IMG/VR virus record: IMGVR_UViG_3300034102_002786
Coordinates: 18,413 to 82,412 of that record
Strand: one strand, 5' to 3'
DNA from: a virus
Taxonomy: Duplodnaviria > Heunggongvirae > Uroviricota > Caudoviricetes
DNA: 64,000 bases
Part shown: positions 51,189 to 64,000 of the stretch, piece by piece
How the letters are laid out: each line of letters begins with the position of its first letter
Numbering within the stretch: the stretch's first letter is position 1
The notes under the pieces: generated by a model
What the model saw: the letters and a program-made list of their open reading frames with translations, nothing else
What the model was told of the DNA's origin: nothing
Database searches by the model: none
Program-made: the position numbers and the translations under genes

Positions 51189-51192
51189 CACC

Positions 51193-51611: not shown

Positions 51612-51686
51612 CAAAAAGTTCCGAACTTAATATTGAGTTAAAATAATGATGTACACATTATACGATAGGATGGAAACCTATCACAT

Positions 51687-51760: not shown

Positions 51761-51765
51761 CACAC

Positions 51766-51836: not shown

Positions 51837-51841
51837 CAATT

Positions 51842-51914
51842 GGCTCTTTAGTGAAATGGATTATCACACAACGCTACGGACGTTGGGTTAAAGGTTCGAA
51901 TCCTTTAGGGGCTA
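51842..51914 (+). tRNA. tRNA-Arg (ACG)
   Basis: Acceptor GGCTCTT/AGGGGCT (three G-U pairs), D GTGA/TCAC, anticodon arm CAACG-CTACGGA-CGTTG, T-arm AAAGG-TTCGAAT-CCTTT. Confidence 0.7.
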
Positions 51915-51922
51915 CATAATAA

Positions 51923-51993
51923 GGCGAGTTGTTAGAGTGGTGATATGAAGTTCTGCAAAAACTTTTACACAGGTTCGAATCCTGTACTCGCCT
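51923..51993 (+). tRNA. tRNA-Cys (GCA)
   Basis: Acceptor GGCGAGT/ACTCGCC, anticodon arm AAGTT-CTGCAAA-AACTT, T-arm ACAGG-TTCGAAT-CCTGT; the D-arm pairs weakly. Confidence 0.75.
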
Positions 51994-52001
51994 CTTGATA
52001 T

Positions 52002-52073
52002 TGTGGGGAGATTAGGTAATCCGTTTGGTCTCATAAGCCAGATATTCAGGTTCAATTCCTGGCCCCGCAACCA
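52002..52073 (+). tRNA. tRNA-Met-like (CAT), copy 2, with a reduced D-arm and an encoded 3' CCA
   Basis: Acceptor TGTGGGG/CCCCGCA, anticodon loop CTCATAA, T-arm TCAGG-TTCAATT-CCTGG, ends A-CCA. Candidate initiator or Ile-lysidine tRNA. Confidence 0.55.
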
Positions 52074-52076
52074 AAT

Positions 52077-52151
52077 GGTGTTTGAAGCATTAAGGTGATG
52101 CGCTAGTTTGTGGAGCTAGATAAGACGGTTCGATACCGTCCTTACACCCCA
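52077..52151 (+). tRNA. tRNA-His (GTG) with the extra 5' G(-1) and an encoded CCA
   Basis: G-1 plus acceptor GTGTTTG/CTTACAC (two T-T mismatches), D GCAT/ATGC, anticodon arm CTAGT-TTGTGGA-GCTAG, T-arm GACGG-TTCGATA-CCGTC, discriminator C. Confidence 0.65.
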
Positions 52152-52153
52152 AC

Positions 52154-52243
52154 GGAGAGTTGCCTGAGTGGCCGAAAGGGCCGGTTTGCTAAACCGTTGT
52201 ACGGAGTTAATCTGTACCGAGAGTTCGAATCTCTCACTCTCCG
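52154..52243 (+). tRNA. tRNA-Ser (GCT), class II
   Basis: Acceptor GGAGAGT/ACTCTCC, anticodon loop TTGCTAA, long variable arm TGTACGGAGTTAATCTGTACC, T-arm GAGAG-TTCGAAT-CTCTC. Confidence 0.8.
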
Positions 52244-52252
52244 CATAAATAA

Positions 52253-52286
52253 TTTGGATAATTGAAAAATTATTCGTATATTTGTA
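52253..52286 (+). promoter_or_regulatory. Bacteroidetes-type promoter inside the array (-33 TTTG at 52253-52256, -7 TATATTTG at 52277-52284)
   Basis: aaTTTGgataattgaaaaattattcgTATATTTGtataac. Confidence 0.55.
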
Positions 52287-52306
52287 TAACTTAAAACATA
52301 AAAGAG

Positions 52307-52735
52307 ATGAACGTAAAACAGGCTTTAAAAGCAAAGAACAAACTTACCACTCAAATCAAAGCGTTATATGAAATCGCTAAGAATCATAACTCAATTGAGG
52401 AAGGTAACCTGCGTAGATATTCCGTAAATGGAGTATTGAATGAAGCAGAAGAATTGACCAAAGAGTTGGTTGATTTAAAAACTAAAATCCATCAGGCTAA
52501 CCAACCTGTATATGGTAAGATTTTCCTAATGGCAGAGCTAAAAGGAAAGGTAAAGCAACTTAAAGGAATGAGTTGTGAAGAAGGTAAAGTAACCGAAAGA
52601 TTTGGTTCAATCCAATCGGTGAAAGAAGTAGAAATTAATATCGCTCAAAAAGACCAAATGATAAAAGATTTGGAAAATCAAATTGAGGGATTGCAGGATG
52701 AGTTGGATGTGTATAACGCAACTACAACCATCTAA
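52307..52735 (+). CDS. hypothetical coiled-coil protein embedded in the tRNA array
   Basis: 142-aa ORF downstream of the internal promoter. Confidence 0.5.
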   Translation: MNVKQALKAKNKLTTQIKALYEIAKNHNSIEEGNLRRYSVNGVLNEAEELTKELVDLKTKIHQANQPVYGKIFLMAELKGKVKQLKGMSCEEGKVTERFGSIQSVKEVEINIAQKDQMIKDLENQIEGLQDELDVYNATTTI

Positions 52736-52947
52736 TAAAAAATTGGGAAGATGTGAGTGATGAAATTTGTTTTTATTATTATCTTGCAAATCTGACGCAT
52801 TGCCAATCAGTATTAAACGATGATGATTAAATAATTTCAACTCTCAAATCTTGATAGAGTCAACATTCGCGCAATGTCAACACACTCAAAACTCTTATTA
52901 ATTGGTAATCATATTAACTTATTGATTCACCACATCAACCCATCTAT

Positions 52948-53019
52948 GCTCGGTTCGTCTAACGGTTAGGACACCACCCTTTCACGGTGGTGATACGGGT
53001 TCGATTCCCGTACCGAGTA
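52948..53019 (+). tRNA. tRNA-Glu (TTC)
   Basis: Acceptor GCTCGGT/ACCGAGT, D GTCT/GGAC, anticodon arm CCACC-CTTTCAC-GGTGG, T-arm ACGGG-TTCGATT-CCCGT; resembles bacterial tRNA-Glu throughout. Confidence 0.85.
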
Positions 53020-53113
53020 CAATAGCATACATCACAATCAGTCAAGCCGTATTTAGCTGTTAGTGTATGTTAGATAAGAGAAAGAAACGGCTGGGACATT
53101 CTCTTATCAAAAC

Positions 53114-53185
53114 GCTTCCAAAGCATTGCAGGCGATGCGCTTGACTTGTAATCAAGATAATTCGGTTCGATTCCGGATGGAAGCT
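53114..53185 (+). tRNA. tRNA-Thr (TGT)
   Basis: Acceptor GCTTCCA/TGGAAGC, D GCAT/ATGC, anticodon arm CTTGA-CTTGTAA-TCAAG, T-arm TTCGG-TTCGATT-CCGGA. Confidence 0.85.
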
Positions 53186-53260
53186 CAAACTAATTCATTG
53201 AGGTGTTTGTCAACCAGTGCATGACATGGATGGTGCGGATAAAGGTGAATTAGTGATTAA

Positions 53261-53334
53261 GGATTGTTGGTGAAGTTGGTTATCATGCCACCCTGTCACG
53301 GTGGAGTTCACGGGTTCGAGTCCCGTACAATCCG
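53261..53334 (+). tRNA. tRNA-Asp (GTC)
   Basis: Acceptor GGATTGT/ACAATCC, D GTGA/TCAT, anticodon arm CCACC-CTGTCAC-GGTGG, T-arm ACGGG-TTCGAGT-CCCGT. Confidence 0.85.
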
Positions 53335-53582
53335 CAAAAGGTATAATTAGATTGTATATGCAATTAGCTCGGCAATCTTTAACACCTGCAGATGTGAGGT
53401 GATTATACTTTTAAGTTGTTTCATACACTTAACACACCTAGTAACAAGGTAAGGCACATAGAGTTACATAGAGGCATGGAGTAATTACCCAACGCCACAT
53501 TCGGACTACAAATGTAGATTAGGTTCAGACGTTGTAGAGAAAGAGATGTTAAGAGTAAACTTGCAAGTTGAAACAACTGTTT

Positions 53583-53659
53583 GGTTCGGTAGCTCAGTTG
53601 GATAGAGCAACAGCCTTCTAAGCTGTGGGTCAAAGGTTCGAATCCTTTCCGAATCACCA
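53583..53659 (+). tRNA. tRNA-Arg (TCT) with an encoded CCA
   Basis: Acceptor GGTTCGG/CCGAATC, D GCTC/GAGC, anticodon arm ACAGC-CTTCTAA-GCTGT, T-arm AAAGG-TTCGAAT-CCTTT, then A-CCA. Confidence 0.85.
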
Positions 53660-53674
53660 AATAAAAAGTAAGAC

Positions 53675-54121
53675 ATGAAAAATGTAACTTTAGTAACATG
53701 CTTCTTTTTGTTATTCATTCCGCATAATATAAATAACTCTGAAAGGAGTGAGGAAGAAGTTGTGGATGAAATAATAGAAAAGAAAAAGTTACCTTATGAT
53801 TTAGTGACCGTAACAACGTACACTGTATCTAAAGGTGAAACCGATTCAACTCCATTAATTACCGCAAGTGGTTACAAATTGGATAGCCTTAATCCAAAGA
53901 AACAAAAGGTAATAGCAATAAGCAGAGACCTGAAACGAAAGTATAAGTTTGGACAAAAAGTAAGAGTGAAGGGTGCTGGTAAATTAGATGGTGTATATAC
54001 CGTCAGAGATTTAATGGCGAAGAGATGGACAAAAAAGATTGATATATTAATTAACCCAGATGATAAAGGAACAAAAATCAGAAAGGTTAAGTTATATAAT
54101 GTAGCAAACATAGGGAATTAG
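53675..54121 (+). CDS. secreted 3D-domain protein (MltA/YocH-like cell-wall-binding or lytic fold)
   Basis: N-terminal signal-like segment, then VTVTTYTVSKGETDSTPLITASGYKL...VRVKGAGKLDGVYTVRD, which follows the 3D-domain pattern (TAYT..E.D..P.TASG). Its 3' end overlaps tRNA-Pro by 10 nt. Confidence 0.6.
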   Translation: MKNVTLVTCFFLLFIPHNINNSERSEEEVVDEIIEKKKLPYDLVTVTTYTVSKGETDSTPLITASGYKLDSLNPKKQKVIAISRDLKRKYKFGQKVRVKGAGKLDGVYTVRDLMAKRWTKKIDILINPDDKGTKIRKVKLYNVANIGN

Positions 54122-54185
54122 CGTAGCCCGGTATCGCGCTTGGTTTGGGACCAAGAGGTCGTCAGTTCGAATCTGGCATTCCCTA
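54112..54185 (+). tRNA. tRNA-Pro (TGG)
   Basis: Acceptor AGGGAAT/ATTCCCT, anticodon arm CTTGG-TTTGGGA-CCAAG, T-arm GTCAG-TTCGAAT-CTGGC. Confidence 0.8.
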
Positions 54186-54218
54186 CGAAAAGATTTGGAT
54201 AAGTGAAATATAAAATAA

Positions 54219-54446
54219 ATGGCAAAGTATATTAAAACCGCATTCATACGAGATTTAGAAATCAAATTGCAAAATGAAGAAATTTCATATGGTAAAGCGA
54301 TTGAACTTATTCAAGAAGAAGTTATTGAAAATTATAAAAAAGATAATACCTTATTGAAAAAAATAAAAAGATTATTAGGTGAGGTTTGGCTAGGATTTAA
54401 GATAGCTGAAGGAAACCGAAATAAATCTCAATGGGGTAAATTTTAA
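54219..54446 (+). CDS. hypothetical protein embedded in the tRNA array
   Basis: 75-aa ORF. Confidence 0.4.
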   Translation: MAKYIKTAFIRDLEIKLQNEEISYGKAIELIQEEVIENYKKDNTLLKKIKRLLGEVWLGFKIAEGNRNKSQWGKF

Positions 54447-54447
54447 A

Positions 54448-54482
54448 TTAGGATAATTAAAATATTATTCGTATCTTTGTAT
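54448..54482 (+). promoter_or_regulatory. promoter inside the array (-7 TATCTTTG at 54472-54479; degenerate -33)
   Basis: ggataattaaaatattattcgTATCTTTGtatag. Confidence 0.45.
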
Positions 54483-54504
54483 AGTTATTTGAAATAGTAT
54501 CGCC

Positions 54505-54590
54505 GCCGAGGTGATGGAATGGTAGACATGAAAGACTTAAAATCTTTTGAGCAGAAATAGCTCGTGTGGGTTCGACTCCCATCCTCGGTA
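54505..54590 (+). tRNA. tRNA-Leu (TAA), class II
   Basis: Acceptor GCCGAGG/CCTCGGT, D-arm TG-ATGG-AATGGTAG-ACAT, anticodon arm AAAGA-CTTAAAA-TCTTT, 18-nt variable arm, T-arm GTGGG-TTCGACT-CCCAT. Confidence 0.8.
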
Positions 54591-54600
54591 CGTTCAATTA

Positions 54601-54674
54601 GGGGAAGTAGCTCAGTTGGCTAGAGCATCTGCCTTGCACGCAGAGGGTCATGGGTTCGACTCCCTTCTTCTCCA
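54601..54674 (+). tRNA. tRNA-Ala (TGC) with the G3:U70 identity pair
   Basis: Acceptor GGGGAAG/CTTCTCC (G3-T70 wobble), D GCTC/GAGC, anticodon arm TCTGC-CTTGCAC-GCAGA, T-loop TTCGACT. Confidence 0.8.
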
Positions 54675-54678
54675 CATC

Positions 54679-54752
54679 GGACCTATAGCTCATTCGGTTA
54701 GAGCAACTGACTCATAATCAGTAGGTGCTTGGTTCGATTCCAAGTGGGTCCA
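54679..54752 (+). tRNA. tRNA-Met (CAT), copy 3, canonical elongator-like
   Basis: Acceptor GGACCTA/TGGGTCC, D GCTC/GAGC, anticodon arm ACTGA-CTCATAA-TCAGT, T-arm CTTGG-TTCGATT-CCAAG. Confidence 0.85.
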
Positions 54753-54760
54753 CAAAAATT

Positions 54761-54833
54761 GCGGAAGTAGCTCATTCGGTAGAGCACAACCTTGCCAAGG
54801 TTGGGGTGGCCAGTTCGAGCCTGGTCTTCCGCT
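54761..54833 (+). tRNA. tRNA-Gly (GCC)
   Basis: Acceptor GCGGAAG/CTTCCGC, D GCTC/GAGC, anticodon arm CAACC-TTGCCAA-GGTTG, T-arm GCCAG-TTCGAGC-CTGGT. Confidence 0.85.
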
Positions 54834-54893
54834 CAAAAGGACTTTAATGGTTGAAGTACAAAACCGAAGTAGGTTAGTCCCACCTACACAAAA

Positions 54894-54966
54894 GCGAGAG
54901 TAGCTCATTTGGTAGAGCGGTAGCCTTCCAAGCTTCAGGTGGCCAGTTCGAGCCTGGTCTCTCGCT
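54894..54966 (+). tRNA. tRNA-Gly (TCC)
   Basis: Acceptor GCGAGAG/CTCTCGC, D GCTC/GAGC, anticodon loop CTTCCAA (one mismatch in the stem), T-arm GCCAG-TTCGAGC-CTGGT. Confidence 0.75.
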
Positions 54967-55025
54967 CAAGTGGGCCTGTTAGTATTAGGCCGCAAGAAGA
55001 ATAGATGTTTTTCAATTACTACAAA

Positions 55026-55053
55026 CTCAAGCATTAATTTGCTTGGGTTTTAT
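55026..55053 (+). terminator. hairpin plus T-tract (weak terminator or attenuator) before tRNA-Gln
   Basis: CTCAAGCA-ttaatt-TGCTTGGG followed by TTTTATT. Confidence 0.35.
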
Positions 55054-55125
55054 TGCCCGATGATGTAATGGTTAGCATCACAGATTTTGATTCTGTTCGT
55101 ATTGGTTCGAGTCCAGTTCGGGTAA
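55054..55125 (+). tRNA. tRNA-Gln (TTG)
   Basis: Acceptor TGCCCGA/TCGGGTA, anticodon arm ACAGA-TTTTGAT-TCTGT, T-arm ATTGG-TTCGAGT-CCAGT. The track's TTG-start ORF at 55053 overlaps this tRNA and is rejected. Confidence 0.75.
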
Positions 55126-55136
55126 CAAAAAATATT

Positions 55137-55598
55137 ATGAAATATAAAATTTCATTTGAAGATATAAATAAAATAAAAGAGGTTTACAAAAATGGTAATG
55201 ATACTAGATATGTACCTAGCAATTCAGATGATATAAATAGTCCATATTTCATAAAAAGTGAAAGATTTTTTTGTGATTTAAAAAATGATGAATTACTAGA
55301 TATTATAAAAAATAATATACCAATAGATGATGTTAATGAATGTATAACATCAATTCATTATATAAATTACAAAAAAGGTGAAGGGGCAAAAGAACATAGT
55401 GATATTGGTGCATCTAATAAAACTTTTATTTTCATTCTAAACGATGAATTTGAAGGTGGTGAATTTCATTTGGATAAAAATTATGTTCCATTAGTGAAAG
55501 GAGATATAATAGCTTTTAATGGAAATCAGCTACACTTAGTTAAACCAATTAAAAAAGGAAATAGAGAGGTTTTAGTTGTCTTTCTAAAAAATAAATAA
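55137..55598 (+). CDS. 2OG-Fe(II) oxygenase superfamily protein (prolyl-4-hydroxylase/PKHD-like)
   Basis: HSD...H facial triad candidates (EHSDIG, then LHLVKP) and a C-terminal RE.LVVF strand. Start set at the ATG after tRNA-Gln. Confidence 0.65.
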   Translation: MKYKISFEDINKIKEVYKNGNDTRYVPSNSDDINSPYFIKSERFFCDLKNDELLDIIKNNIPIDDVNECITSIHYINYKKGEGAKEHSDIGASNKTFIFILNDEFEGGEFHLDKNYVPLVKGDIIAFNGNQLHLVKPIKKGNREVLVVFLKNK

Positions 55599-55625
55599 AA
55601 ATTTTAATAATTAAAAACAAATGTT

Positions 55626-55889
55626 ATGGGATTATTTTGGACGTATTATGTAATTTGTTTCATCTATTGTCTTGTAATGTCAATACGAAAATGGAATAGA
55701 GATGTAAGAGCAGGTGGTTTAGGTATATCACCTGGTTTAGATTCTTTGGCTCTATTGATTATGTGTTGGATATTAGCACCAGTAGATATATTCTTAACTT
55801 GGGTTAGGGTATATAAAGAAGCAGAAGAAGCAAGAAGAAATCAAAGTACTTTAGATACTAAAGACTTTAAAGATGAAAAAGTATTCTAA
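55626..55889 (+). CDS. small membrane protein
   Basis: 87-aa ORF with two TM helices. Confidence 0.45.
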   Translation: MGLFWTYYVICFIYCLVMSIRKWNRDVRAGGLGISPGLDSLALLIMCWILAPVDIFLTWVRVYKEAEEARRNQSTLDTKDFKDEKVF

Positions 55890-55906
55890 TTATTAGAGTA
55901 CTAAAC

Positions 55907-55991
55907 AGAGAGTTGGCCGAGTGGTTGATGGCGGCAGTCTTGAAAACTGTTTTACTGAAAGGTAACGGGGGTTCGAATCCCTCACTCTCTG
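55907..55991 (+). tRNA. tRNA-Ser (TGA), class II
   Basis: Acceptor AGAGAGT/ACTCTCT, 3-bp D-stem GCC/GGC, anticodon arm GCAGT-CTTGAAA-ACTGT, 16-nt variable arm, T-arm GGGGG-TTCGAAT-CCCTC. Confidence 0.8.
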
Positions 55992-55996
55992 CACAT

Positions 55997-56143
55997 TGTA
56001 AGGTGTTGGAATTGGCAGACAAGCCCTCCTGTCTCGGGGGTGGTGAGCACGAAATAGGTTAGTAATATGGGGTAGACCACCATCCTGCAGGAATGTGTTA
56101 CTAACTGAATCGCACTATGGTGGTTCGAATCCATCTCTTACAG
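55997..56143 (+). tRNA. 147-nt tRNA-like gene (Leu-like D-arm) carrying a ~78-nt insertion between the anticodon-arm region and the T-arm; anticodon unresolved; possibly intron-containing or disrupted
   Basis: Acceptor TGTAAGG/TCTTACA (7 bp), D-arm TG-TTGG-AATTGGCAG-ACAA is almost identical to the adjacent tRNA-Leu genes, candidate anticodon arm CCCTC-CTGTCTC-GGGGG, T-arm GGTGG-TTCGAAT-CCATC. The insert 56041-56118 contains a 9-bp hairpin GGTTAGTAA...TTACTAACT and the palindrome TCCTGCAGGA. Confidence 0.4.
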
Positions 56144-56148
56144 CAAAG

Positions 56149-56230
56149 GCCCCGTTGATGGAATTGGTAGACATGCCAGACTTAGGATCTGGTGCTGAGA
56201 AGCATAAGAGTTCGAGTCTCTTATGGGGCA
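56149..56230 (+). tRNA. tRNA-Leu (TAG), class II
   Basis: Acceptor GCCCCGT/ATGGGGC, D-arm TG-ATGG-AATTGGTAG-ACAT, anticodon arm CCAGA-CTTAGGA-TCTGG, 13-nt variable arm, T-arm AAGAG-TTCGAGT-CTCTT. Confidence 0.8.
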
Positions 56231-56246
56231 CTCAAAAACAAAATTT

Positions 56247-56702
56247 ATGAAGTACAAAAAGCTTTATGGTAGAGAAGAATTTGAACTTATCCCTTATGTT
56301 AAAAACTATTTTGAAAACAATGAAAATATTGAACTTCTTATCGGATGTGATTCGCAAAACTTTGCCGATAAAACAATATATGCCGTTGTTGTGGCTTTGT
56401 ACCATAACGGAAAAGGAGCTCATGTACTTTATAGAAGATGGAAAGCAGATAGAGAACCAACCCGTTCAGTAAGATTATTAAACGAAGTTTGGTATGCAAT
56501 TGAAGCAGCTGAATATTTAAGAGAAGCTGGTATTCCAAAACCAAAGTGGATTGATATTGATTTGAATCCAGATCCACGCTTTAAATCAAATGAAGTGTTC
56601 AGACAAGCAGTTGGTATGGTAGAAGGTATGGGGTATGAAGTACGATATAAAACATTAGGTCCAATTGCAACTTATGCAGCTGACCACTTAGTAAAAATAT
56701 AA
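56247..56702 (+). CDS. hypothetical protein
   Basis: Start moved to the ATG at 56247, because the track start at 56223 lies inside tRNA-Leu. Confidence 0.5.
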   Translation: MKYKKLYGREEFELIPYVKNYFENNENIELLIGCDSQNFADKTIYAVVVALYHNGKGAHVLYRRWKADREPTRSVRLLNEVWYAIEAAEYLREAGIPKPKWIDIDLNPDPRFKSNEVFRQAVGMVEGMGYEVRYKTLGPIATYAADHLVKI

Positions 56703-56703
56703 T

Positions 56704-57303
56704 ATGAGTTACTCATCTGTTCAAGACTTATTTATTAGTATTCCTCAAAAAGTATTACTTGTTGGAAACGGTGATATTAAAAATATGGGAAGTATAATAG
56801 ATAGTTATGAATATGTAATTCGTTTCAATGATTTCCAATTGGATGGACATGAAGAAAATGCAGGTACTAAAATATCTGCATTATCTTTGCATTGCAGTGA
56901 CTTTTCTCACAAACATACAAAGTATTTAGAAAAAAATTATATAAAGTATAGTGGTAGTGTTCCTATATTTACAACATCACCAAAGTATCCAAACAGCAAA
57001 GATGATATAATACATATACAATCTGGAACTAAACTATTGGATGTATCACTTCCTTTGATGATTAGCCCAACATTTAGACTTTCATCGGGAGGAACTTTAG
57101 CATTAAATTTATCTTTGTTCTTTAATAAAGAAGTACATTTAGTTGGGTTTAATTTTTTCTTAAAATCAGGTCATTACTACGATAAAGATTTTACAAACGA
57201 AGAATTTTGGAAAAAAATTATGGGAACTGATGTTGTTGAACATGATGGTGAGTTTGAAAAAAGAATACTAACTAATTTTAAGAACATTCACATAATTGAT
57301 TAA
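56704..57303 (+). CDS. sialyltransferase-like glycosyltransferase (GT29/GT42-like sialyl-motif L)
   Basis: VLLVGNGDIKNMGSIIDSYEYVIRFNDFQLDGHEENAGTKIS follows the sialyl-motif L pattern (V.GNG..L.....ID..D.V.R.N...). Confidence 0.5.
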   Translation: MSYSSVQDLFISIPQKVLLVGNGDIKNMGSIIDSYEYVIRFNDFQLDGHEENAGTKISALSLHCSDFSHKHTKYLEKNYIKYSGSVPIFTTSPKYPNSKDDIIHIQSGTKLLDVSLPLMISPTFRLSSGGTLALNLSLFFNKEVHLVGFNFFLKSGHYYDKDFTNEEFWKKIMGTDVVEHDGEFEKRILTNFKNIHIID

Positions 57304-58597
57304 TATGAAAATAGTTGCGTTTTTACCTGTAAAGGGAACAAGTTCAAGAATAGAAAACAAAAATATAAAATTGTTGGATGGTAAACCACTATTCTTACAT
57401 ACATTAGAAAAACTTTTACAATGTGATATTATAGACGAAGTTTATTTAGATACTGAATCCAATGAGGTAATTGGTATGGCATCTCATTTAAATCATTTTG
57501 TATTAAAGAGAGACCATTCTTTGGCTGATAATAAAACCGATGGTAATAAATTATTTATGAATGAAGTTAGGCAAGTGGATGCCGATATATACATTCAGAT
57601 TTTATGTACATCACCTTTTATAGAAACCAATACAATTAAATTAGCAATAAATCAAATAGTACATTCCAAATATGATTCGGCTGTTTTAGTTAGAGATGAA
57701 AAATTATATACGTGGACAGATGGTAAGCCTGTGTATGATATAAACAATATACCTAACAGTGTTGATTTGGAAAGTACAACAATTGAAACTATGGGATTAT
57801 ACATAGTAAAAAAAGAATGTGCTATACAAACTCAAAGAAGAATAGGTGATAATCCATTTTTAGTTAAAGCAAGTATAATCGAAGCCATTGATGTTAATTG
57901 GCCTGAAGATTTTGAATTGGCAAATCTTATAGCAGCTGGTTTGAGAGAGAAAGATAGAATCTTATTGGATAACCTAAAAAGTCAATTGAATAGTTCGATG
58001 CTATCGGATTTGTTAGATGATTTGGGATATTCAACTATAATAAACGGATTACAACCAAACATAATTGATGCTAAGATTTTTGGTAGAGCTAAAACTTTGA
58101 AGATACGAAAGTTAAAAGAAGGTGATAGTTACAAAGGAATATACAATGCATTACATAGTTATAATACAATAGTACCAAATGATGTTATAATTGTTGAAAA
58201 CGAAATATCAGATTACGCATACTTTGGTGAACTAAATGCTAACTTAGGAATACGTTCTGGTGCGGTTGGTGCAATTGTTGGTGGGGTTACTAGAGATTCA
58301 GCTGATGTAAAGAAATTAGGGTTTCCTGTATTTGCTAAAGGTAATAAATGTATTGATGTTAGAAGGCGTGCAACTTTGGATGGAATAAATGTTCCAATAC
58401 AAATAGAAGGTGTTAGGATACTACCCGGTGATTTAGTATTTGCTGATAACGAAGGTATTGTTGTTATACCAAAAGAAATTGAGAAAAAATTATTGGCTAT
58501 GGCTATGGAAGTTTGTATGAAAGAAAAAAGTGTATTGTTGGATATAGCTAATGGTATAGGAGTTGATGAACTTGTAAAACGAAATGGAGAATTCTAA
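57296..58597 (+). CDS. fusion of a CMP-N-acylneuraminate (or CMP-nonulosonate/KDO) cytidylyltransferase domain with a C-terminal RraA-family domain
   Basis: The N-terminal KIVAFLPVKGTSSRIENKNIKLLDGKPLF is the NeuA/KdsB signature. The C-terminal GIRSGAVGAIVGGVTRDSADVKKLGFPVFAKG...GDLVFADNEGIVVIPKE is the RraA/MenG-like fold. Confidence 0.7.
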   Translation: MINMKIVAFLPVKGTSSRIENKNIKLLDGKPLFLHTLEKLLQCDIIDEVYLDTESNEVIGMASHLNHFVLKRDHSLADNKTDGNKLFMNEVRQVDADIYIQILCTSPFIETNTIKLAINQIVHSKYDSAVLVRDEKLYTWTDGKPVYDINNIPNSVDLESTTIETMGLYIVKKECAIQTQRRIGDNPFLVKASIIEAIDVNWPEDFELANLIAAGLREKDRILLDNLKSQLNSSMLSDLLDDLGYSTIINGLQPNIIDAKIFGRAKTLKIRKLKEGDSYKGIYNALHSYNTIVPNDVIIVENEISDYAYFGELNANLGIRSGAVGAIVGGVTRDSADVKKLGFPVFAKGNKCIDVRRRATLDGINVPIQIEGVRILPGDLVFADNEGIVVIPKEIEKKLLAMAMEVCMKEKSVLLDIANGIGVDELVKRNGEF

Positions 58598-59020
58598 ATG
58601 GATATTACTAAAGAAGTTATAAATCATTTGGCTAATAATATAAAAACCGAAATAGCAGTTTCACCTTTAGACGGTGTTGGTGTATTTGCCATCAAAGATA
58701 TTAAGAAAGGTGAAGATGTGTTTCCAATTTGGGAAGGTGAAACTGGAATTTATGTTGTACCTAATAGTGATTTGGATAAAATACCAAAATCGGTGCAACA
58801 TTTACTTCACAAATATTTTATCAACGAAGAATGTGGATATAAGATAATACGATTATTCAAAGGATTAAATTTCTTATTCCACGGATTCAGTTATTGTAAT
58901 TCAGCACACCCTAATATAGAAAATGTAAACATTGATATAAATGGGATAGCACTACGAGATATAAAAGCAGGCGAAGAAATTTTAGAATGGTACACAGAGA
59001 ATATAAACTTAGAAAATTAA
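58598..59020 (+). CDS. SET-domain protein (putative protein-lysine methyltransferase)
   Basis: HGFSYCNSAHPN (resembling NHSC.PN) followed by IALRDIKAGEEILEWY is the SET C-terminal signature. Confidence 0.5.
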   Translation: MDITKEVINHLANNIKTEIAVSPLDGVGVFAIKDIKKGEDVFPIWEGETGIYVVPNSDLDKIPKSVQHLLHKYFINEECGYKIIRLFKGLNFLFHGFSYCNSAHPNIENVNIDINGIALRDIKAGEEILEWYTENINLEN

Positions 59021-59061
59021 AAATTAAGATATGTATATATAAACATTAAAACTTAAAAGTT

Positions 59062-59406
59062 ATGGGAACACAACATGTGCCGTTACAAATTGATGAAAAC
59101 AACAATGTAACAAAAGTAGGACACGATATGGGTGGTTCGTATGAATACACCACAATTAAAGATAACGAACAATTTGATAATTGCGTAATTTGTGGAAAAA
59201 CTACGGTGTATAGAACACAGCAACATATTGATACTAGAATCGGATATGTTGAAGGCGTTGGACAACTTTGTGGAAATTGTTATACGGGTGGTTCACCTTC
59301 AGGCAGAGAAATGATTACAATACCAAAACATTGGGTATTGGGGACACCAAATGACCAAGAATTGGGTAAAAAAGTTAGGGCCTATTATTGGGAAAATTAC
59401 GGATAA
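59062..59406 (+). CDS. hypothetical Cys-rich protein
   Basis: CVICG...CGNCYTGG. Confidence 0.45.
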   Translation: MGTQHVPLQIDENNNVTKVGHDMGGSYEYTTIKDNEQFDNCVICGKTTVYRTQQHIDTRIGYVEGVGQLCGNCYTGGSPSGREMITIPKHWVLGTPNDQELGKKVRAYYWENYG

Positions 59407-59585
59407 TCATAACTCATTGATTTTCAACAACTTATAACTCATTGATTTTCAATGGGTTATTTTTTGTCAAAAACTTTTTTATTGATAATCAACACGTTAG
59501 AATTTGTGAGACAAAAATAATCACTAAAATATTTGTTTAATTCAAATACAATTACTACCTTTACTATGTAATAAAACTTAAAAAT
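59407..59585 (+). repeat. duplicated ~180-bp intergenic regulatory module, copy A (three TTGA-N3-TCAA sites plus a conserved promoter-proximal block)
   Basis: Roughly 80-85 percent identical by eye to 63781-63972: cattgattttcaa (twice), ttattgaNaatcaacacgttag, ctaaaatatttg, tttactatgtaataaaacttaaaaat(t)atg. Confidence 0.7.
59417..59492. promoter_or_regulatory. three operator-like sites (59417-59427, 59442-59452, 59482-59492)
   Basis: TTGAtttTCAA twice and TTGAtaaTCAA; the first two extend to CATTGA-N3-TCAA(tg). Confidence 0.5.
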
Positions 59586-60062
59586 ATGAAGGTCAATTTA
59601 GGAATTGTGGTAGCATCCCACTTAAACGATGCGATGATTGAAGTAAATTTCAATACGGAATTGGCAACCAAACGTATGAAGTTTGTAAAAGCTCTTACTT
59701 TCCATAATCAGAATTTGGAATTGGGTGTAACCGATGAGTATTTGAATTGGTTATGGTCTGAATTGGATAACGGTAATTGGGGTGGTGAATATGATAATTC
59801 AACTAATTATTCAATTGTAAAAAACGAAGGTAATATCAGAAACTATTATTTAGAAGCTTTCCCAACCGATGAATTGGGTATTGAAATTAATCCTGAAGCT
59901 ACCTTTGCTGGTTTACAAAAAGTTTTGGATAACTTTGAAGATGTTTATGAATACATTGGCGTTGGTGATAGTTTGGTAAGAGAGCGTGTATTCGATAAAT
60001 TGGCAATAACAATGGGTGTAGAATATGATGTAATTTATTCACAATGGTTATTGTCCGCTTAA
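59586..60062 (+). CDS. hypothetical protein
   Basis: 158-aa ORF downstream of module A. Confidence 0.5.
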   Translation: MKVNLGIVVASHLNDAMIEVNFNTELATKRMKFVKALTFHNQNLELGVTDEYLNWLWSELDNGNWGGEYDNSTNYSIVKNEGNIRNYYLEAFPTDELGIEINPEATFAGLQKVLDNFEDVYEYIGVGDSLVRERVFDKLAITMGVEYDVIYSQWLLSA

Positions 60063-60086
60063 TTAATCAATTAAATAAAAATAAAT

Positions 60087-60365
60087 ATGAACAAGTTAGT
60101 TTTTAAAGTTAATGAGAAGGCTTGTATAGCTTTCCTTAAAAAGTATCCTTTGGTATGTAACCTTATGGAGAATTCCAATGGTAAAGATTTAATGTCCGCT
60201 TATAAGAAGTTCTTAAAGTTAAAGGAAATGAATGAATCTAAGTTGGGTGGTAGAGCTGAATGTATAGGTTCGGTTTCATTTGGTACTAAGACATTCTATA
60301 AATACGATTGGGATGCTTGTAGTGGATGGGCTGAAGTTTTTCAATTTTATAAAAATAAAAAATAA
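60087..60365 (+). CDS. hypothetical protein
   Basis: 92-aa ORF. Confidence 0.45.
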   Translation: MNKLVFKVNEKACIAFLKKYPLVCNLMENSNGKDLMSAYKKFLKLKEMNESKLGGRAECIGSVSFGTKTFYKYDWDACSGWAEVFQFYKNKK

Positions 60366-60369
60366 GAAT

Positions 60370-60582
60370 ATGAATAAAGTAAATGATTTAAAACAAGTTA
60401 TTGGGAAAGATGTTTCTCAAAACTTTTCACCAACTTGTAGAGCAAGATTGGTTAAAGTAAATAAAGTGAATTCAACATTTGAATCAGTTCCATCGCCATA
60501 CGATAAGTTCCCTAAGCCGGAGTTTGTTGGAGTTAAGTACAAAGTACCTAATTGGATTGCATGGAATAGTTTCTTTTATTAA
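60370..60582 (+). CDS. hypothetical protein
   Basis: Start at the internal ATG after the upstream stop. Confidence 0.4.
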   Translation: MNKVNDLKQVIGKDVSQNFSPTCRARLVKVNKVNSTFESVPSPYDKFPKPEFVGVKYKVPNWIAWNSFFY

Positions 60583-60602
60583 TAAAATTAAAAATTAAGT
60601 AT

Positions 60603-61244
60603 ATGATTTATAAAACAAATCAGCCGGCTATATTTACGGCACAAACGTATGGTACTAAAACTACCGTAGAGATTGACCATTGTGACTTGGACTTGGATGA
60701 AGTTATGGATGCTTTCCAAACACTTATCAAAGGTATGGGGTATCACAACGATGCTTTCAAACAATGGATATTGGAAAGAGCAGAAGAGTATAGAGAAGAT
60801 GAAACGCCCCAATATGATAGTGCCGGATTTTCTTATAACAATAGATTAGATTCTACATTGAAAAATGTATTAGGTGATGCCAATCCATTGGTAGATGAAA
60901 TTCGTTCACACTATGTAAGTAACGAAGAAGCTGATGAAGATTATCGTTCAACATTGTTGCAGGATTCTCAAAGATATGAAGATTCAAAAAAATTCAATGG
61001 TATTACACAAAAGTTATTGGATTATGTAGATAGGAGAGGTGCAGTATCTTATACTGAATTACATACTTATTACAAAATTCATTCTGGTTCGAATAGTTTC
61101 TCACACATATTGGCTAATTTGAGAATACCTTATAAGAATCGTAAAACACAAAGGTACTTAGCTAAAGAGGGTAAACGTTATTCAGATGCTAAGTATGTGA
61201 TTAAGGTAGCTAATCCATCAAATTGGGTAGAAGTAGATTATTAA
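60603..61244 (+). CDS. hypothetical protein
   Basis: 213-aa ORF. Confidence 0.5.
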   Translation: MIYKTNQPAIFTAQTYGTKTTVEIDHCDLDLDEVMDAFQTLIKGMGYHNDAFKQWILERAEEYREDETPQYDSAGFSYNNRLDSTLKNVLGDANPLVDEIRSHYVSNEEADEDYRSTLLQDSQRYEDSKKFNGITQKLLDYVDRRGAVSYTELHTYYKIHSGSNSFSHILANLRIPYKNRKTQRYLAKEGKRYSDAKYVIKVANPSNWVEVDY

Positions 61245-61262
61245 TAAATAAAAATTAAAGTT

Positions 61263-61517
61263 ATGGATATTAGAGAAAAATATAGAGAGCGAGCTATTCA
61301 ATTCGCTAAAGAGTGGAATGAAGAAAATGTAAGTGACCATATTTTTGATATTATGGTTTCTATTATGGCCACAAGAGATAAATCATCTTACGCAGGTGGT
61401 GGATTTGTTGAAGCAGTTGTAGCTAACAATTTGTATTTGGCTATGAGTAGAGCCGATTCCGATTGTAGAAAGAACATATTCTTATTAACAATGTGTAACG
61501 CTAATTGTTACGCTTAA
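61263..61517 (+). CDS. hypothetical protein
   Basis: 84-aa ORF. Confidence 0.45.
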   Translation: MDIREKYRERAIQFAKEWNEENVSDHIFDIMVSIMATRDKSSYAGGGFVEAVVANNLYLAMSRADSDCRKNIFLLTMCNANCYA

Positions 61518-61547
61518 AAACTAATTGTAAAACCTAAAAATTAAATT

Positions 61548-61790
61548 ATGGCAAGTATTGACATTGATATTGAAGAAATCATATATTCGATGACTAGTTG
61601 GGAAAAACAGGAATTAGCAGATGAACTTTATGATGATGGGTATGTTCCAAAACAAATGGGTGGAGTGCATCCTGATGATGTACCAACAGGTGACTTTGAT
61701 AAAGAAGTGAGTAAACTTATTGGTAATAGTTGGAGATTATCAAAAGAAGATGAAGAAACGATTTTACGAATCGCAAATAAATTAATCTAA
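61548..61790 (+). CDS. hypothetical protein
   Basis: 80-aa ORF. Confidence 0.45.
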   Translation: MASIDIDIEEIIYSMTSWEKQELADELYDDGYVPKQMGGVHPDDVPTGDFDKEVSKLIGNSWRLSKEDEETILRIANKLI

Positions 61791-62006
61791 ATGAAAGCAA
61801 TAGAAGCATTTTTAATTGTAATTGGATTGTTGTTATTATCAGCAATCATTTTGGCGTTTCCAACAATGTTCCTTTGGAATTGGTTAATGCCTAGAATTTT
61901 TGGTGTAACACAAATTACCTTATACGAAGCTATGGGTATTAATTTTCTTACACACATTCTTTTCAAATCAAACGTAACTATTAAAAGAGATGGCAATGAA
62001 AACTAA
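61791..62006 (+). CDS. small membrane protein
   Basis: 71-aa ORF with two TM helices. Confidence 0.4.
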   Translation: MKAIEAFLIVIGLLLLSAIILAFPTMFLWNWLMPRIFGVTQITLYEAMGINFLTHILFKSNVTIKRDGNEN

Positions 62007-62169
62007 TATTACAATAGAAGAACAAATGGATATTGAATTGATATTGGAAGAAGCAGGTGCTTGGGGACTTCGTTATGAAGTTGAAGAAACTGCTAAAAAA
62101 TATCACCATGAAGATGGACATCCTATTGTAGATGCGTATCATTTCGCTTACGAAGATTGGATTAAATAA
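61990..62169 (+). CDS. small acidic hypothetical protein (59 aa)
   Basis: Hand-translated MAMKTNITIEEQMDIELILEEAGAWGLRYEVEE... Confidence 0.3.
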   Translation: MAMKTNITIEEQMDIELILEEAGAWGLRYEVEETAKKYHHEDGHPIVDAYHFAYEDWIK

Positions 62170-62175
62170 TAAACT

Positions 62176-62484
62176 ATGTTAGTAGAAAATTGGGATAAAC
62201 TTTATGGTGAGAATTTATTCACACCTGATACAATGTATGGATTTGATAAAGATACAATGACTATAGCACCCGATGCACAAGTTGTTCGTATAGCTCCGAT
62301 GAGTGGTAAGGGTAATACTCCTTTCACTATTGTTGTAACCAAAGCCCAAAATCGTATCAAATGCGGAATCTACATTGATAGGCAATGGAATCCAATTGAG
62401 ATATTTGAAATGAGCAAATTGGATTTGAAAACAATAGATACGTTCAAAAAATTATTATCCTACAAAATAGCAAATCATGAATAA
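62176..62484 (+). CDS. hypothetical protein
   Basis: 102-aa ORF. Confidence 0.45.
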   Translation: MLVENWDKLYGENLFTPDTMYGFDKDTMTIAPDAQVVRIAPMSGKGNTPFTIVVTKAQNRIKCGIYIDRQWNPIEIFEMSKLDLKTIDTFKKLLSYKIANHE

Positions 62485-62845
62485 AAAAGAAGTAGAGAGA
62501 TTGGCTGAAATCTATTTAGATAGAACAATAGAACTTTTGGGTGAAAGTAAATACCATCCACATGCACCGTATTTAGTTGTAGAATACAGTCCGAATTCGG
62601 AAGGTATTGATAACGATTGGCATGGTGAATATGATGATGAAGAAAACGAAATTATAATCTATTCAAAAAATATAACATCAAAGAGTGATTTGGCAAAAAC
62701 AATAGTACACGAATACACTCATTATTTACAAGACCCAAAATGGATGGCACGATATTATAGTATGGGATATAAGTATCATAATCACCCATACGAAAAACAG
62801 GCATTTATAATGGAAGAACTAAATTGGTTTAAGATATGCAAATAG
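62477..62845 (+). CDS. hypothetical protein with an HExxH motif (possible SprT/WLM-like metallopeptidase)
   Basis: IVHEYTHYLQ. Confidence 0.3.
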   Translation: MNKKEVERLAEIYLDRTIELLGESKYHPHAPYLVVEYSPNSEGIDNDWHGEYDDEENEIIIYSKNITSKSDLAKTIVHEYTHYLQDPKWMARYYSMGYKYHNHPYEKQAFIMEELNWFKICK

Positions 62846-63054
62846 AAATGATAAATGCAAATAATAGTGTGTGGGTAATAAAAAGAAAATTTAAAGCAGA
62901 TAGTTGGTTTGTTCAGGGATTATTCTCTAATAAATTTACAGCTCAAGAAGCTTGTGAAGCATATCACGTTGAAAAACTATTGAGAGGACCGGATGATACA
63001 CACTATTTAGTAAACGAAGTACCTGAAGCTGAAATTGTAAACGATACTATTTAG
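62836..63054 (+). CDS. hypothetical protein
   Basis: 72-aa ORF. Confidence 0.4.
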   Translation: MQIEMINANNSVWVIKRKFKADSWFVQGLFSNKFTAQEACEAYHVEKLLRGPDDTHYLVNEVPEAEIVNDTI

Positions 63055-63058
63055 AACT

Positions 63059-63385
63059 ATGAAGTATGACCCACAAAATGAGTTGACTGATGAACAACTG
63101 AAAGAATTATCCGAAGATGATTTCTTTGAGTATTTGGATACCAAAGCAGCTTACTTAAAAGAGTTCACAGTTCCATTAGACCAATACCACACTAAGAAAT
63201 ATGCATCTGTGGCAGCCGGTGGTAATCTTTCAACTAAACAATTGAGAGAGGCTAAGAAGATTGGTAGGGAAGGTGAATGGGTTCGTAACGAGAAGATAAG
63301 AGATGCTGCTAAAAACATTACTGCCAAAGTTCCTGATTTGTATGTTAAACATCACAAAACTGACCGCTCACAATGGTTTGAATAA
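63059..63385 (+). CDS. hypothetical protein
   Basis: 108-aa ORF. Confidence 0.45.
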   Translation: MKYDPQNELTDEQLKELSEDDFFEYLDTKAAYLKEFTVPLDQYHTKKYASVAAGGNLSTKQLREAKKIGREGEWVRNEKIRDAAKNITAKVPDLYVKHHKTDRSQWFE

Positions 63386-63395
63386 TTAATAAGTT

Positions 63396-63626
63396 ATGAA
63401 AGAATTAGACCTTCACGGATTATTACATCACCAAGTTAGAGATGAAGTTGAGAACTTTGTTTTACTTAACGCCAAAGAACTACCTATCAGAATCATAATA
63501 GGTAATTCTATCCGAATGAAAAACCTTACTGAAAACATTTTATATAAACATAAATTTGAATGGTATATCCCAGCGCATAACGCCGGTGAAATTATTGTTA
63601 CCTTTGATAAAGATTATAAACTATAA
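63396..63626 (+). CDS. Smr-domain protein (small MutS-related nuclease domain)
   Basis: ELDLHGLLHHQVRDEVENFVL...IRIIIGNS follows the Smr pattern (LDLHG...A...FL.....IIHGKG). Confidence 0.6.
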   Translation: MKELDLHGLLHHQVRDEVENFVLLNAKELPIRIIIGNSIRMKNLTENILYKHKFEWYIPAHNAGEIIVTFDKDYKL

Positions 63627-63629
63627 CCT

Positions 63630-63797
63630 ATGGGCAAGTTTTATGAAAATTTGGATGACCTTAATAAGTTAATTAAGAAGCTTGAAAAAAGAGATGAAGT
63701 ATCTATATTCTTATTAAGAGCAATAGCTTACGCTAAGGATAACCCAAACTTATCAGTTCACGAAATAATAAAGAACACTAAGGACGAAAGATTCTAA
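63630..63797 (+). CDS. small hypothetical protein (55 aa)
   Basis: Hand-translated MGKFYENLDDLNKLIKKLEKRDEVSIFLLRAIAYAKDNPNLSVHEIIKNTKDERF. Confidence 0.3.
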   Translation: MGKFYENLDDLNKLIKKLEKRDEVSIFLLRAIAYAKDNPNLSVHEIIKNTKDERF

Positions 63798-63972
63798 CCC
63801 ATTGATTTTCAATGACTTATGTAACTTATTGATTTTCAATGAATTATATTAGTTAAAAAATTCTTTATTGAGAATCAACACGTTAGCATTTAGACCCCAA
63901 AAATAACCCCTAAAATATTTGGATATATCGTGCCGTTTTTGTACATTTACTATGTAATAAAACTTAAAAATT
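63781..63972 (+). repeat. duplicated ~180-bp intergenic regulatory module, copy B
   Basis: See copy A at 59407-59585. Confidence 0.7.
63802..63878. promoter_or_regulatory. three operator-like sites (63802-63812, 63829-63839, 63868-63878)
   Basis: TTGAtttTCAA twice and TTGAgaaTCAA. Confidence 0.5.
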
Positions 63973-64000
63973 ATGGCTACGAGCAATTTCCACAACGTAA
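63973..64000 (+). CDS. 5' end of a gene continuing past the window (MATSNFHNV...)
   Basis: ATG immediately after module B in the aaaattATGG context; open to the window end. Confidence 0.3.

Follow-up and report, generated by a model that had tools for sequence, protein, structure and literature searches.

Why do two intergenic stretches of a phage genome that lie 4.4 kb apart and precede unrelated genes share most of their sequence? This question is raised by a 64,000-nt stretch of viral DNA (Caudoviricetes), called the window in the following, which comprises positions 18,413 to 82,412 of the IMG/VR record IMGVR_UViG_3300034102_002786. The window has a G+C content of 33% and all its substantial open reading frames (ORFs) are located on the plus strand, to which the cassettes, sites and promoters described below refer. 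In a first-pass annotation, two similar stretches of about 180 bp with three sites and several conserved blocks had been reported, and both were found where that annotation placed them. Here, we describe them as copies of a cassette that runs from the stop codon of one gene to the start codon of the next and that combines palindromic sites, a promoter of the host type and a short leader. This anatomy of cassette and promoter is very probably right. Moreover, it can be read from the sequence itself, as can the class of the promoter, the recurrence of the cassette in the genome and its conservation at equivalent positions of a related phage. A wider reading has about an even chance of being correct: the two modules would be paralogous copies of a composite operon-boundary cassette, which resembles the promoter early stem-loops (PeSLs) of other phages and whose palindromes serve as sites for an architectural protein, in a large phage that uses Bacteroidota-type promoters.

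Two copies of a control region and their promoter

Cassette A (59407-59585) spans the entire gap between the TAA codon (59404-59406) that ends the upstream 114-aa gene and the ATG at position 59586. Cassette B (63798-63972) extends from a TAA codon (63795-63797), which is part of its first palindrome, to the ATG at position 63973; the start at 63781 that had been proposed earlier takes in 14-17 nt of the upstream gene. An alignment of the intergenic parts using MAFFT yielded 140 identical positions out of 178 (79%) and three gaps. Inside the three sites, 69 of 79 positions agree. When the sites were masked, 71 of 99 positions were identical (72%), which is above the floor of 60% set for this comparison. 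The likeness is distributed in blocks. The final 26-nt block TTTACTATGTAATAAAACTTAAAAAT is identical in both copies and occurs exactly twice in the window, as does AATCAACACGTTAG, and the 20-nt spacer of the promoter is identical at 7/20 positions, the chance level for AT-rich DNA.

Behind each copy lies a separate operon of small genes. The first of them, operon A (59586-63797), consists of about 14 tightly packed small ORFs, of which those tested could not be assigned to a family, and ends at the TAA codon inside the first palindrome of copy B. Operon B contains about 13 small ORFs and runs for about 5 kb on L252, one of the loci fetched for comparison (numbered with the prefix L). This NCBI contig of 27.5 kb matches positions 54717-64000 with 98.9% identity and reaches 9.4 kb past the window. 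The first gene of operon B (176 aa, ATG at 63973) is complete in this contig. The first genes located 3' of the two copies show no homology to each other (BLASTP, E = 0.48). Thus, the repeat is a control region rather than a block of genes, and the proposal of a repeated regulatory cassette has been borne out.

The promoter of the cassette was identified by its resemblance to those of the presumptive hosts' phylum. The primary sigma factor of the Bacteroidetes recognises, as outlined in a published account, TTTG near -33 and TAnnTTTG near -7, which can be written as TTTG-N19-20-TANNTTTR (PMC7366714). This pattern occurs 21 times in the window, where 4.1±1.9 matches are expected; 18 of the 21 matches, which include both modules, are on the plus strand and they are mostly intergenic. 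Matches to sigma-70 promoters do not exceed the chance level in the window (53 vs 45.7 expected). The recurrent intergenic signal TTTG(G)-N19-20-TAnnTTT(G/A) was also seen in the repeat families D4, D6 and D8 of the window. The promoter pattern precedes the CobT-like gene, the CobS-like gene, a gene of the HAD family and several groups of ORFans, and it is present in tandem before the cluster of tRNA and GOLLD RNA genes.

In cassette A, an A-tract-rich, UP-like stretch (…CAAAAATAAtcaCTAAAATA; 59501-59531) lies directly 5' of the -33 element TTTG (59532-59535), which is followed by the 20-nt spacer (59536-59555) and the -7 element TACCTTTA (59556-59563). The predicted start G 59568 opens an A-rich 18-nt leader without a Shine-Dalgarno sequence (GTAATAAAACTTAAAAAT; 59568-59585). 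Cassette B is organised alike (promoter 63918-63949), with an UP-like stretch (…CCCCAAAAATAAccccTAAAATA; 63887-63917), TTTG at 63918-63921, a 20-nt spacer, the -7 element TACATTTA (63942-63949) and a 19-nt leader (63954-63972) beginning at the predicted start G 63954. We infer both starts from the TTTAC-N3-G spacing that is common to this promoter subclass. Moreover, AAAATAAT…AAAATA recurs 5' of the -33 element in related cassettes. The combination of TTTG, a 20-nt spacer and TAnnTTTA is shared with at least 14 other intergenic promoters of the window. Unlike the published consensus, the -7 element has A in place of the final G and is followed by C (TAnnTTTAC), a variant that also characterises the promoters of the tRNA and GOLLD genes at 48.7-49.2 kb.

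This arrangement explains the pattern of conservation. The stretch that is not conserved in the alignment coincides exactly with the promoter spacer, and the -33 element, the -7 element and the leader are conserved. The block CTAAAATATTTG ends in the TTTG of the -33 element in both copies, exactly 20 nt before the -7 element, and the block TTTACTATGTAATA is composed of the 3' part of the -7 element (TAccTTTA / TAcaTTTA), C-N3-G and the first bases of the leader. The latter block had been suggested to define a distinct class of middle or late promoters. As it is fully accounted for by a promoter of the host type, a separate class is not needed and this suggestion is not supported. Two candidate elements were rejected. 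An ATG TAA mini-ORF in the leader that could load ribosomes is not retained, as related cassettes keep (A/T)GTAA rather than ATG. A hairpin between the third site and the -33 element (GTGA…TCAC in copy A; AGGG…CCCT in copy A of L098) is absent from copy B and from copy B of L098, and the version in copy A of L098 can be explained by a 12-nt inversion.

Palindromic sites in the window and in other phages

Upstream of the promoters, both cassettes carry copies of a palindromic motif that is strongly overrepresented in the window. The core ATTGANNNTCAA occurs 16 times (2.1 expected), a number that was not reached in any of 100 shuffles, and the two-sided pattern YAANNNNTTGANNNTCAANNNNTTR occurs nine times (0.00 expected). 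The conserved positions of the 25-bp motif read YAA-N4-TTGA-W3-TCAA-N4-TTR, with which all nine two-sided sites of the window comply. The sites form five clusters (26607; 28927 and 28965; 37308 and 37333; 59409, 59434 and 59474; 63794, 63821 and 63860), each of which starts 0-30 nt past a stop codon and ends 11-40 nt short of a -33 element. The search for further copies that the first-pass annotation had recommended was thus successful: palindromes precede three other promoters of the window, and L252 contains a third related module about 5.1 kb beyond copy B, which consists of two inverted one-sided sites, A-tracts and TTTGG-N20-TACTTTTAC.

In both copies, sites 1 and 2 abut and a one-sided third site follows about 40 bp beyond the pair. 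Site A1 (ATAACTCATTGA-TTT-TCAACAACTTAT; 59409-59435) is a 27-bp quasi-palindrome with both YAA/TTR ends and the TTGA/TCAA core, but its middle N4 positions are unpaired and the minimum free energy (MFE) of its sense RNA is 0.0 kcal/mol. Site A2 (ATAACTCATTGA-TTT-TCAATGGGTTAT; 59434-59460) is a near-perfect palindrome with 12 pairs and an MFE of -11.3 kcal/mol. It is followed by TTTTTG (59461-59466) and was the only canonical intrinsic-terminator-like hairpin that a terminator scan flagged within 56-64 kb. Site A3 (tttaTTGATAATCAACACGTTAG; 59474-59500), whose core is centred about 80 nt 5' of the predicted start, contains A-ATCAA-CACG-TTA on the plus strand and cannot form a hairpin. In copy B, site B1 (CTAACCCATTGA-TTT-TCAATGACTTAT; 63794-63820; sense MFE -4.2 kcal/mol) provides the stop codon of the upstream gene with its TAA. 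Site B2 (GTAACTTATTGA-TTT-TCAATGAATTAT; 63821-63847) forms a weak hairpin (-4.1 kcal/mol) without a T-run and was not flagged as a terminator, and the one-sided site B3 (tttaTTGAGAATCAACACGTTAG; 63860-63886) is identical to A3 at 24/27 positions.

The other three cassettes are of the same kind. The cassette before the CobT-like gene (26607-26683) has one site (26607-26633) and the promoter TTTG-N19-TATATTTG (26653-26683). The cassette before the gene for the CobS/MoxR-like ATPase (28927-29049) has two sites (28927-28953 and 28965-28991) and TTTGG-N20-TATCTTTA, and that before the HAD-family gene (37308-37394) has two abutting sites (37308-37334 and 37333-37359) and TTTG-N20-TATATTTG. The site at 37333 is a good sense-strand hairpin (-10.9 kcal/mol). 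The CobT-like protein (738 aa) and the CobS/MoxR-type AAA ATPase (401 aa) are encoded as a pair (26714-30311, plus strand), each gene having its own palindrome-promoter cassette. At positions 32487-32520, terminator and promoter occupy shared bases, as a hairpin (AGTCTTGG-taatt-CCAAGACT) with TTTTT on its 3' side overlaps the -33 element that belongs to a -7 element beginning at 32513.

The motif is widespread among phages. The exact 18-mer TAACTCATTGATTTTCAA is present in at least 116 viral contigs of IMG/VR, while a composition-matched control hairpin was found in 10. Further DNA is shared between the window and 27 of the fetched loci, and many motif-bearing phage contigs have no nucleotide similarity to the window. 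No close annotated phage was found: a megablast search with the region of 57-64 kb against a phage collection was empty, a tblastn search with the 158-aa product of the first gene gave no match among annotated phages, and the CobS-like protein had distant matches only. Likewise, no Rfam family matched the module at a useful score, and an Rfam scan of the whole window detected only tRNAs and GOLLD. The literature on the core sequences contained unrelated matches (FabT box, primers), and nothing relevant was found in that on Bacteroidetes terminators and Flavobacterium phage palindromes.

In the 89.5-kb contig with L098 and in the 274-kb contig with L042/L250, both modules are located between the same genes as in the window, the products of which share 50-92% identity with their counterparts there. 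Thus, the pair is older than the divergence of these phages. Relatives differ in the genes that follow the cassette (L040/L075, L006, L105, L018), and an 84-aa protein (encoded at 61263-61517) was found behind cassettes in four different neighbourhoods. For sites 1 and 2, the similarity is higher between orthologues (93%) than between paralogues (75%). The third site and the -7 element show the opposite: copies from one genome resemble each other more than they resemble their orthologues, and L098 has third sites that agree completely over 32 nt and -7 elements that agree at 8/8 positions. The likeness within a genome suggests either gene conversion or joint evolution with a factor peculiar to that genome. 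Furthermore, related cassettes of other phages also contain the block TTTAC-N3-GTAA.

Variants of the arrangement were observed as well. Tandem cassettes, in which a promoter, about 60 nt, the motif and the next promoter follow each other, are present in L002 (6540-7950), L249 (11220-11430) and L251 (4260-4470), and may produce short non-coding RNAs whose start is conserved (…AAGGGTTGAGGGTATTC…). In one metagenome-assembled genome (MAG) of the Microscillaceae (Prado074), the strict palindrome is present on seven contigs (L119, L126, L146, L157, L162, L167 and L168), with three copies on L126; these copies may reflect an amplification of the kind known from repetitive extragenic palindromes (REPs) or phage DNA that was binned into the MAG. 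At positions 48689-48734 of the window, the half-site ATAACTCATTGATT (48694-48707) lies between the DnaA-box-like sequence TGTGTATAA and the perfect box TTATCCACA, just 5' of the first tRNA/GOLLD promoter. The same layout of site and DnaA boxes is present in L079, and tandem DnaA boxes lie beside the motif in L002. The region in the window could be origin-like or controlled by DnaA.

RNA hairpins or protein sites

According to the reading that we prefer, the host RNA polymerase would start transcription of each small-gene operon at the promoter of the cassette, and a dimeric DNA-binding protein, for which the HU/IHF (DNABII) family is a candidate, would dock on the palindromes, shape the DNA 5' of the promoter and tune its activity. 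The second palindrome of copy A, with its T-run, would also terminate transcription arriving from upstream and insulate the operon. The copies would be kept alike by selection on the functional blocks and probably by some gene conversion. That the palindromes are protein sites at all seems just probable to us.

The palindromes could also act only as RNA hairpins, that is as terminators, attenuators or 3'-end stabilisers before a restart promoter, as in the PeSLs of T4-type phages, with the degenerate copies being decayed or recombinant. The position of every cluster just past a stop codon fits a pure terminator-promoter cassette, and so do the strong sense hairpins at 59434-59460 and 37333-37359 with their U-rich runs, at least ten related loci in which ATAACTCATTGATTTTCAATG(A/G)GTTAT is followed by TTTTTG, and the ability of adjacent sites to pair mutually into long stems (for instance 28920-29000, -23.9 kcal/mol). 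By their sequence, the site at 59434-59460 and probably that at 37333-37359 resemble intrinsic terminators, and only the former is a credible one; the family as a whole does not fit this description. Only these two sites of the window fold well; the other seven of the nine two-sided sites, with both of copy B among them, do not fold more strongly than -5.5 kcal/mol and lack a T-run, yet they retain every consensus position. Pairing was examined in 40 synteny-oriented, non-redundant 27-mer phage sites, the 3' arms of which were shuffled among the sequences. The arms pair in 78.5% of the cells (78.7±0.7% after shuffling) and the covariation score is 0.085 (0.077 after shuffling). As pairing equals the arm-shuffled level, the arms are conserved independently and do not covary. 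The outer TAA/TTA positions are paired in 80-85% of the sites, the middle N4 positions in only 30-62%, and A·C mismatches on the sense strand (37) exceed G·U pairs (21). Moreover, the third site, which cannot fold, is conserved in both copies of the window and of L098 and in L250, L002, L249 and L251, and it is found at the same place in the opposite orientation in L088. Finally, in two groups of unrelated viral contigs (L024/L059/L094/L106 and L054/L090/L103), a capsid-like gene is followed first by a canonical GC-rich terminator of its own and then by the 25-bp motif, which is located 31-32 nt before the next ATG and has opposite orientations in the two groups. The lack of covariation, the weak folds, the conserved unfoldable site and the motifs beyond separate terminators together favour recognition as double-stranded DNA. 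We regard it as rather unlikely that the palindromes act only as hairpins, and the same grade applies to the pure terminator-promoter cassette.

If the sites are recognised as DNA, they might be operators for a phage-specific repressor or activator of the helix-turn-helix kind, with TTTACTATGTAATA as the core of a middle or late promoter class read by a phage-modified or phage-encoded polymerase; operator sites and possibly such a promoter class had been suggested in the first-pass annotation. The conservation of the sites as DNA rather than as pairs and their grouping in twos or threes before genes agree with this model. The third site and the -7 element co-vary within a genome (window vs L098), which would fit co-evolution with a phage-encoded factor, and TTTAC-N3-GTAA recurs in other phages. 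We nevertheless consider the operator model improbable. The supposed core consists of host-type promoter parts with a -33 element at 20 nt, and the promoters of the tRNA and auxiliary genes have the same architecture. In the window, no site overlaps a -33 element, a -7 element or a start; all lie 5' of the -33 element, at distances that vary between cassettes from 11 to more than 47 nt and are not phased. No regulator gene was found near the sites, and no DNA-binding domain in the 40 ORFs scanned with Pfam, so that the sites differ from classical repressor operators, which overlap the core promoter or the start and whose regulator is usually encoded nearby. Blocks of 4 bp that are 7 bp apart over 25 bp appear atypical for a helix-turn-helix dimer, and the motif is common to many phage contigs that are unlike the window in nucleotide sequence. 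By inspection, a box for FNR or CRP was rejected, as TTGAT-N4-ATCAA comprises 14 bp and the core described here 11 bp, which makes the spacing of the half-sites wrong. The motif could also be a selfish or recombination-related repeat, such as a REP, a bacterial interspersed mosaic element (BIME), a miniature inverted-repeat transposable element or the site of a recombinase or transposase, which spreads in Bacteroidota phages and some hosts and makes the modules alike as a by-product. Such a repeat would account for the abundance of the exact 18-mer relative to its control, the seven loci of the single Microscillaceae MAG, the small inversions in relatives (the third site of L088 and the 12-mer in copy A of L098) and the variable gene content beside the cassettes. 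However, orthologous positions have been kept in phages with flanking proteins that are only 50-70% identical, the sites lie between genes and 5' of a coding region in all cases, no neighbour resembling a transposase or recombinase was found, and the conservation continues through the promoter and the leader, which are plainly functional. This explanation is therefore very improbable.

A candidate for the protein that would bind the palindromes in our preferred reading is suggested by the pattern of the sites. Canonical IHF sites have WATCAA near the centre and TTR 4 bp further on, and two AA steps that are 9 bp apart take the kinks (PMC1874591; 10.1101/382655). A single half of the motif reads WATCAA-N4-TTR, which equals the IHF consensus, albeit one derived from E. 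coli from which the specificity of the DNABII proteins of the Bacteroidota may differ. For example, A-ATCAA-TGAG-TTA is found in the reverse complement of ATAACTCATTGATTTTCAA, and A-ATCAA-CACG-TTA in the third sites. In every site, 9 bp separate the TT step from the AA step (T1T2GAWWWTCA10A11), as is the case for the kinked steps of IHF sites. The IHF consensus WATCAANNNNTTR occurs 29 times in the window (11.7±3.6 expected), 14 of the 29 matches being inside the five clusters. As in E. coli, sites are located 10-120 bp 5' of promoters and also where operons end, in one- and two-sided versions. Here, by contrast, the consensus is symmetrised, with the central WATCAA, the TTR spacing and the 9-bp steps holding on both halves, and the promoter-distal N4 is itself conserved (CTCA). 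The RIP/RIB types of BIMEs are palindromic repeats of E. coli that bear IHF sites, and we know of no characterised sequence-specific IHF site in the Bacteroidota. The Bacteroidetes have a large expansion of the HU/IHF family and an IHF-like host factor, BHFa (PMC5499826; PMC6606824). Since the site pattern coincides with the symmetrised IHF consensus, a DNA-bending protein of the DNABII family, encoded by the host or by the phage, is the leading candidate, and a binding protein of the HU/IHF type may be entertained tentatively. A bolder idea, which we hold to be unlikely, is that the motif is the specific site of an uncharacterised bender of the HU/IHF superfamily, encoded by host or phage, and that many unrelated Bacteroidota phages have adopted this site as a movable architectural module, which they would place before early promoters, next to DnaA boxes, and between capsid and tail genes. 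The duplicated cassette would then be one instance of a phylum-wide architectural code that is exploited by phages.

Besides the E. coli origin of the IHF consensus, several observations weigh against an architectural protein that acts at these promoters. The A-tract of canonical IHF sites is at a distance of about 8 nt, as in the H' site of lambda. In the third sites, AAAAA(A) is found 12-13 nt before WATCAA, a place that is taken by the second half-site in the two-sided sites, and thus the A-tract is not at the canonical distance. A signature scan and a Pfam search of 40 ORFs detected neither a DNABII gene nor a helix-turn-helix gene in the window, and a hidden Markov model built from five HU/IHF sequences found none of the DNABII family in phage DNA among about 1.1 Mb of fetched viral loci. 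The sole gene of the HU/IHF family in all fetched DNA is a host hup gene (L165, 2349-2671), which has the palindrome about 25 nt past its stop codon, probably as its terminator. No protein family co-occurs with the motif, the largest cluster being a PhoH-like one in 11 of about 120 loci. Helical phasing of the distances between sites and promoters was not seen, and no recognisable host-type promoter accompanies the motif in L024/L059/L094/L106 and L054/L090/L103, so that its role may not be tied to promoters. Furthermore, the promoter-distal arm is much better conserved and T-rich centres dominate the sense strand, neither of which is predicted by a symmetric dimer site, and many perfect copies in relatives are located right after stop codons and precede T-runs.

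The host genomes provide a further point of this kind. A search with one genome per bacterial species located AACNCATTGANNNTCAATGNGTT in at least 120 loci, nearly all of them in Bacteroidota. Among the matches listed, 36/120 are within 40 nt 3' of tRNA genes and the free pair is a Watson-Crick pair in 79/120; beside tRNAs, all six exceptions among these matches are U·G on the tRNA sense strand. Judged by this pairing, the host copies after tRNA genes are genuine RNA hairpins, as the pure-hairpin view has it. The host matches follow eleven different tRNA species and have T-runs, which argues for terminators and led us to reject a tRNA-linked attachment site (attP). Neither an enrichment of the motif in hosts nor a terminator sequence that is conserved throughout the phylum can be claimed, as the search pattern forced the core, the matches cluster in orthologous tRNA loci and no control pattern was included.

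Further features of the window and comparison with known systems

The window carries several other elements. A full-length GOLLD RNA (RF02032; 49669-50086, plus strand; 295.9 bits with a gathering score of 150) is embedded in a cluster of 26 tRNA genes detected with Rfam (48807-56230), all on the plus strand with a few small ORFs between them, and four tandem host-type promoters (48749-49172) are located upstream of GOLLD. Several genes on the plus strand encode proteins with recognisable domains, among them a homologue of ribosomal protein S21 (17880-18152; PF01165, E = 3e-11), the Fe-S assembly proteins IscU/NifU-like (35262-35660; E = 7e-51) and IscA-like (36625-36954; E = 3e-18), and, within 42040-46799, the auxiliary proteins 4HBT thioesterase (42040-42399), heme oxygenase (44817-45362) and S-adenosylmethionine decarboxylase (46344-46799). 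A 796-aa ORF (18219-20609, plus strand) contains Ser/Thr-rich, collagen-like Gly-X-Y repeats with a 9-nt periodicity at about 18319-19180, and two paralogous genes that are 1.6 kb apart (39420-40163, 247 aa; 41043-41801, 252 aa) share about 70% DNA identity. A run of sugar-modification genes (1-16176, plus strand) includes a HAD/nucleotidyltransferase fusion and a family 2 glycosyltransferase, and the annotations of L252 comprise a sialyltransferase-like gene (weak match) and a CMP-sugar synthetase. This gene content suggests that the phage makes or alters a surface glycan.

The nearest described analogue of the cassette is the PeSL of T4-type phages, of which it would be the functional counterpart in a Bacteroidota phage. 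PeSLs extend from stop codon to ATG and are composed of a stem-loop, an AT-rich stretch and a host-type early promoter, flanked by ORFans (Arbiol et al. 2010, PMC2839356; Comeau et al. 2014, PMC4122927). The cassettes described here share the stop-to-ATG unit of palindromic stem-loop, AT-rich stretch, promoter for the host sigma factor and leader. They are likewise repeated many times amid small ORFans, the copies within a genome are more alike than neutral drift permits, and the gene content between cassettes differs among relatives. The two systems differ in that the promoter is of the -33/-7 type of the Bacteroidota instead of sigma-70, and in that a Shine-Dalgarno sequence is missing. The palindromes are AT-rich, mostly without a stable hairpin or covariation, and resemble IHF sites in their consensus; a cassette has two or three of them, and T4 core genes were not seen in the window. 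A stable stem-loop of the PeSL type with a T-run is offered by A2 (-11.3 kcal/mol), whereas the hairpins of copy B reach only about -4 kcal/mol and have no T-run. PeSLs also serve as recombination points, at which mini-circles and indel breakpoints arise. Such a role of the present cassettes is putative; what was observed is the small, unassigned genes behind them, a gene content that differs among relatives and the homogenisation of the third site and the -7 element within a genome.

For control by a phage protein of the DNABII family, the phage SPO1 provides a precedent. Its HU-type protein TF1 binds preferred sites at early promoters, requires DNA with hydroxymethyluracil and represses transcription. 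In SPO1, a DNABII protein thus controls host-type early promoters at specific sites, as is tentatively proposed here; in contrast to SPO1, no DNABII gene was found in the phage DNA examined here. TF1 is counted among the phage nucleoid-associated proteins (PMC6606824).

Gene regulation in phages of the Bacteroidota is almost unexplored, and the cassette offers a testable anatomy by which ORFan-rich regions can be split into operons that are read by the host polymerase. It carries the PeSL idea, known from T4-type coliphages, to another host phylum with a different promoter grammar. Should the palindromes be nothing but hairpins, the cassette would be an ordinary terminator-promoter junction. 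If a protein of the HU/IHF type of the Bacteroidota does bind the palindromes, they would represent the first defined specific site for that expanded family, and the site would be a handy marker of regulatory regions in metagenomic phage contigs.

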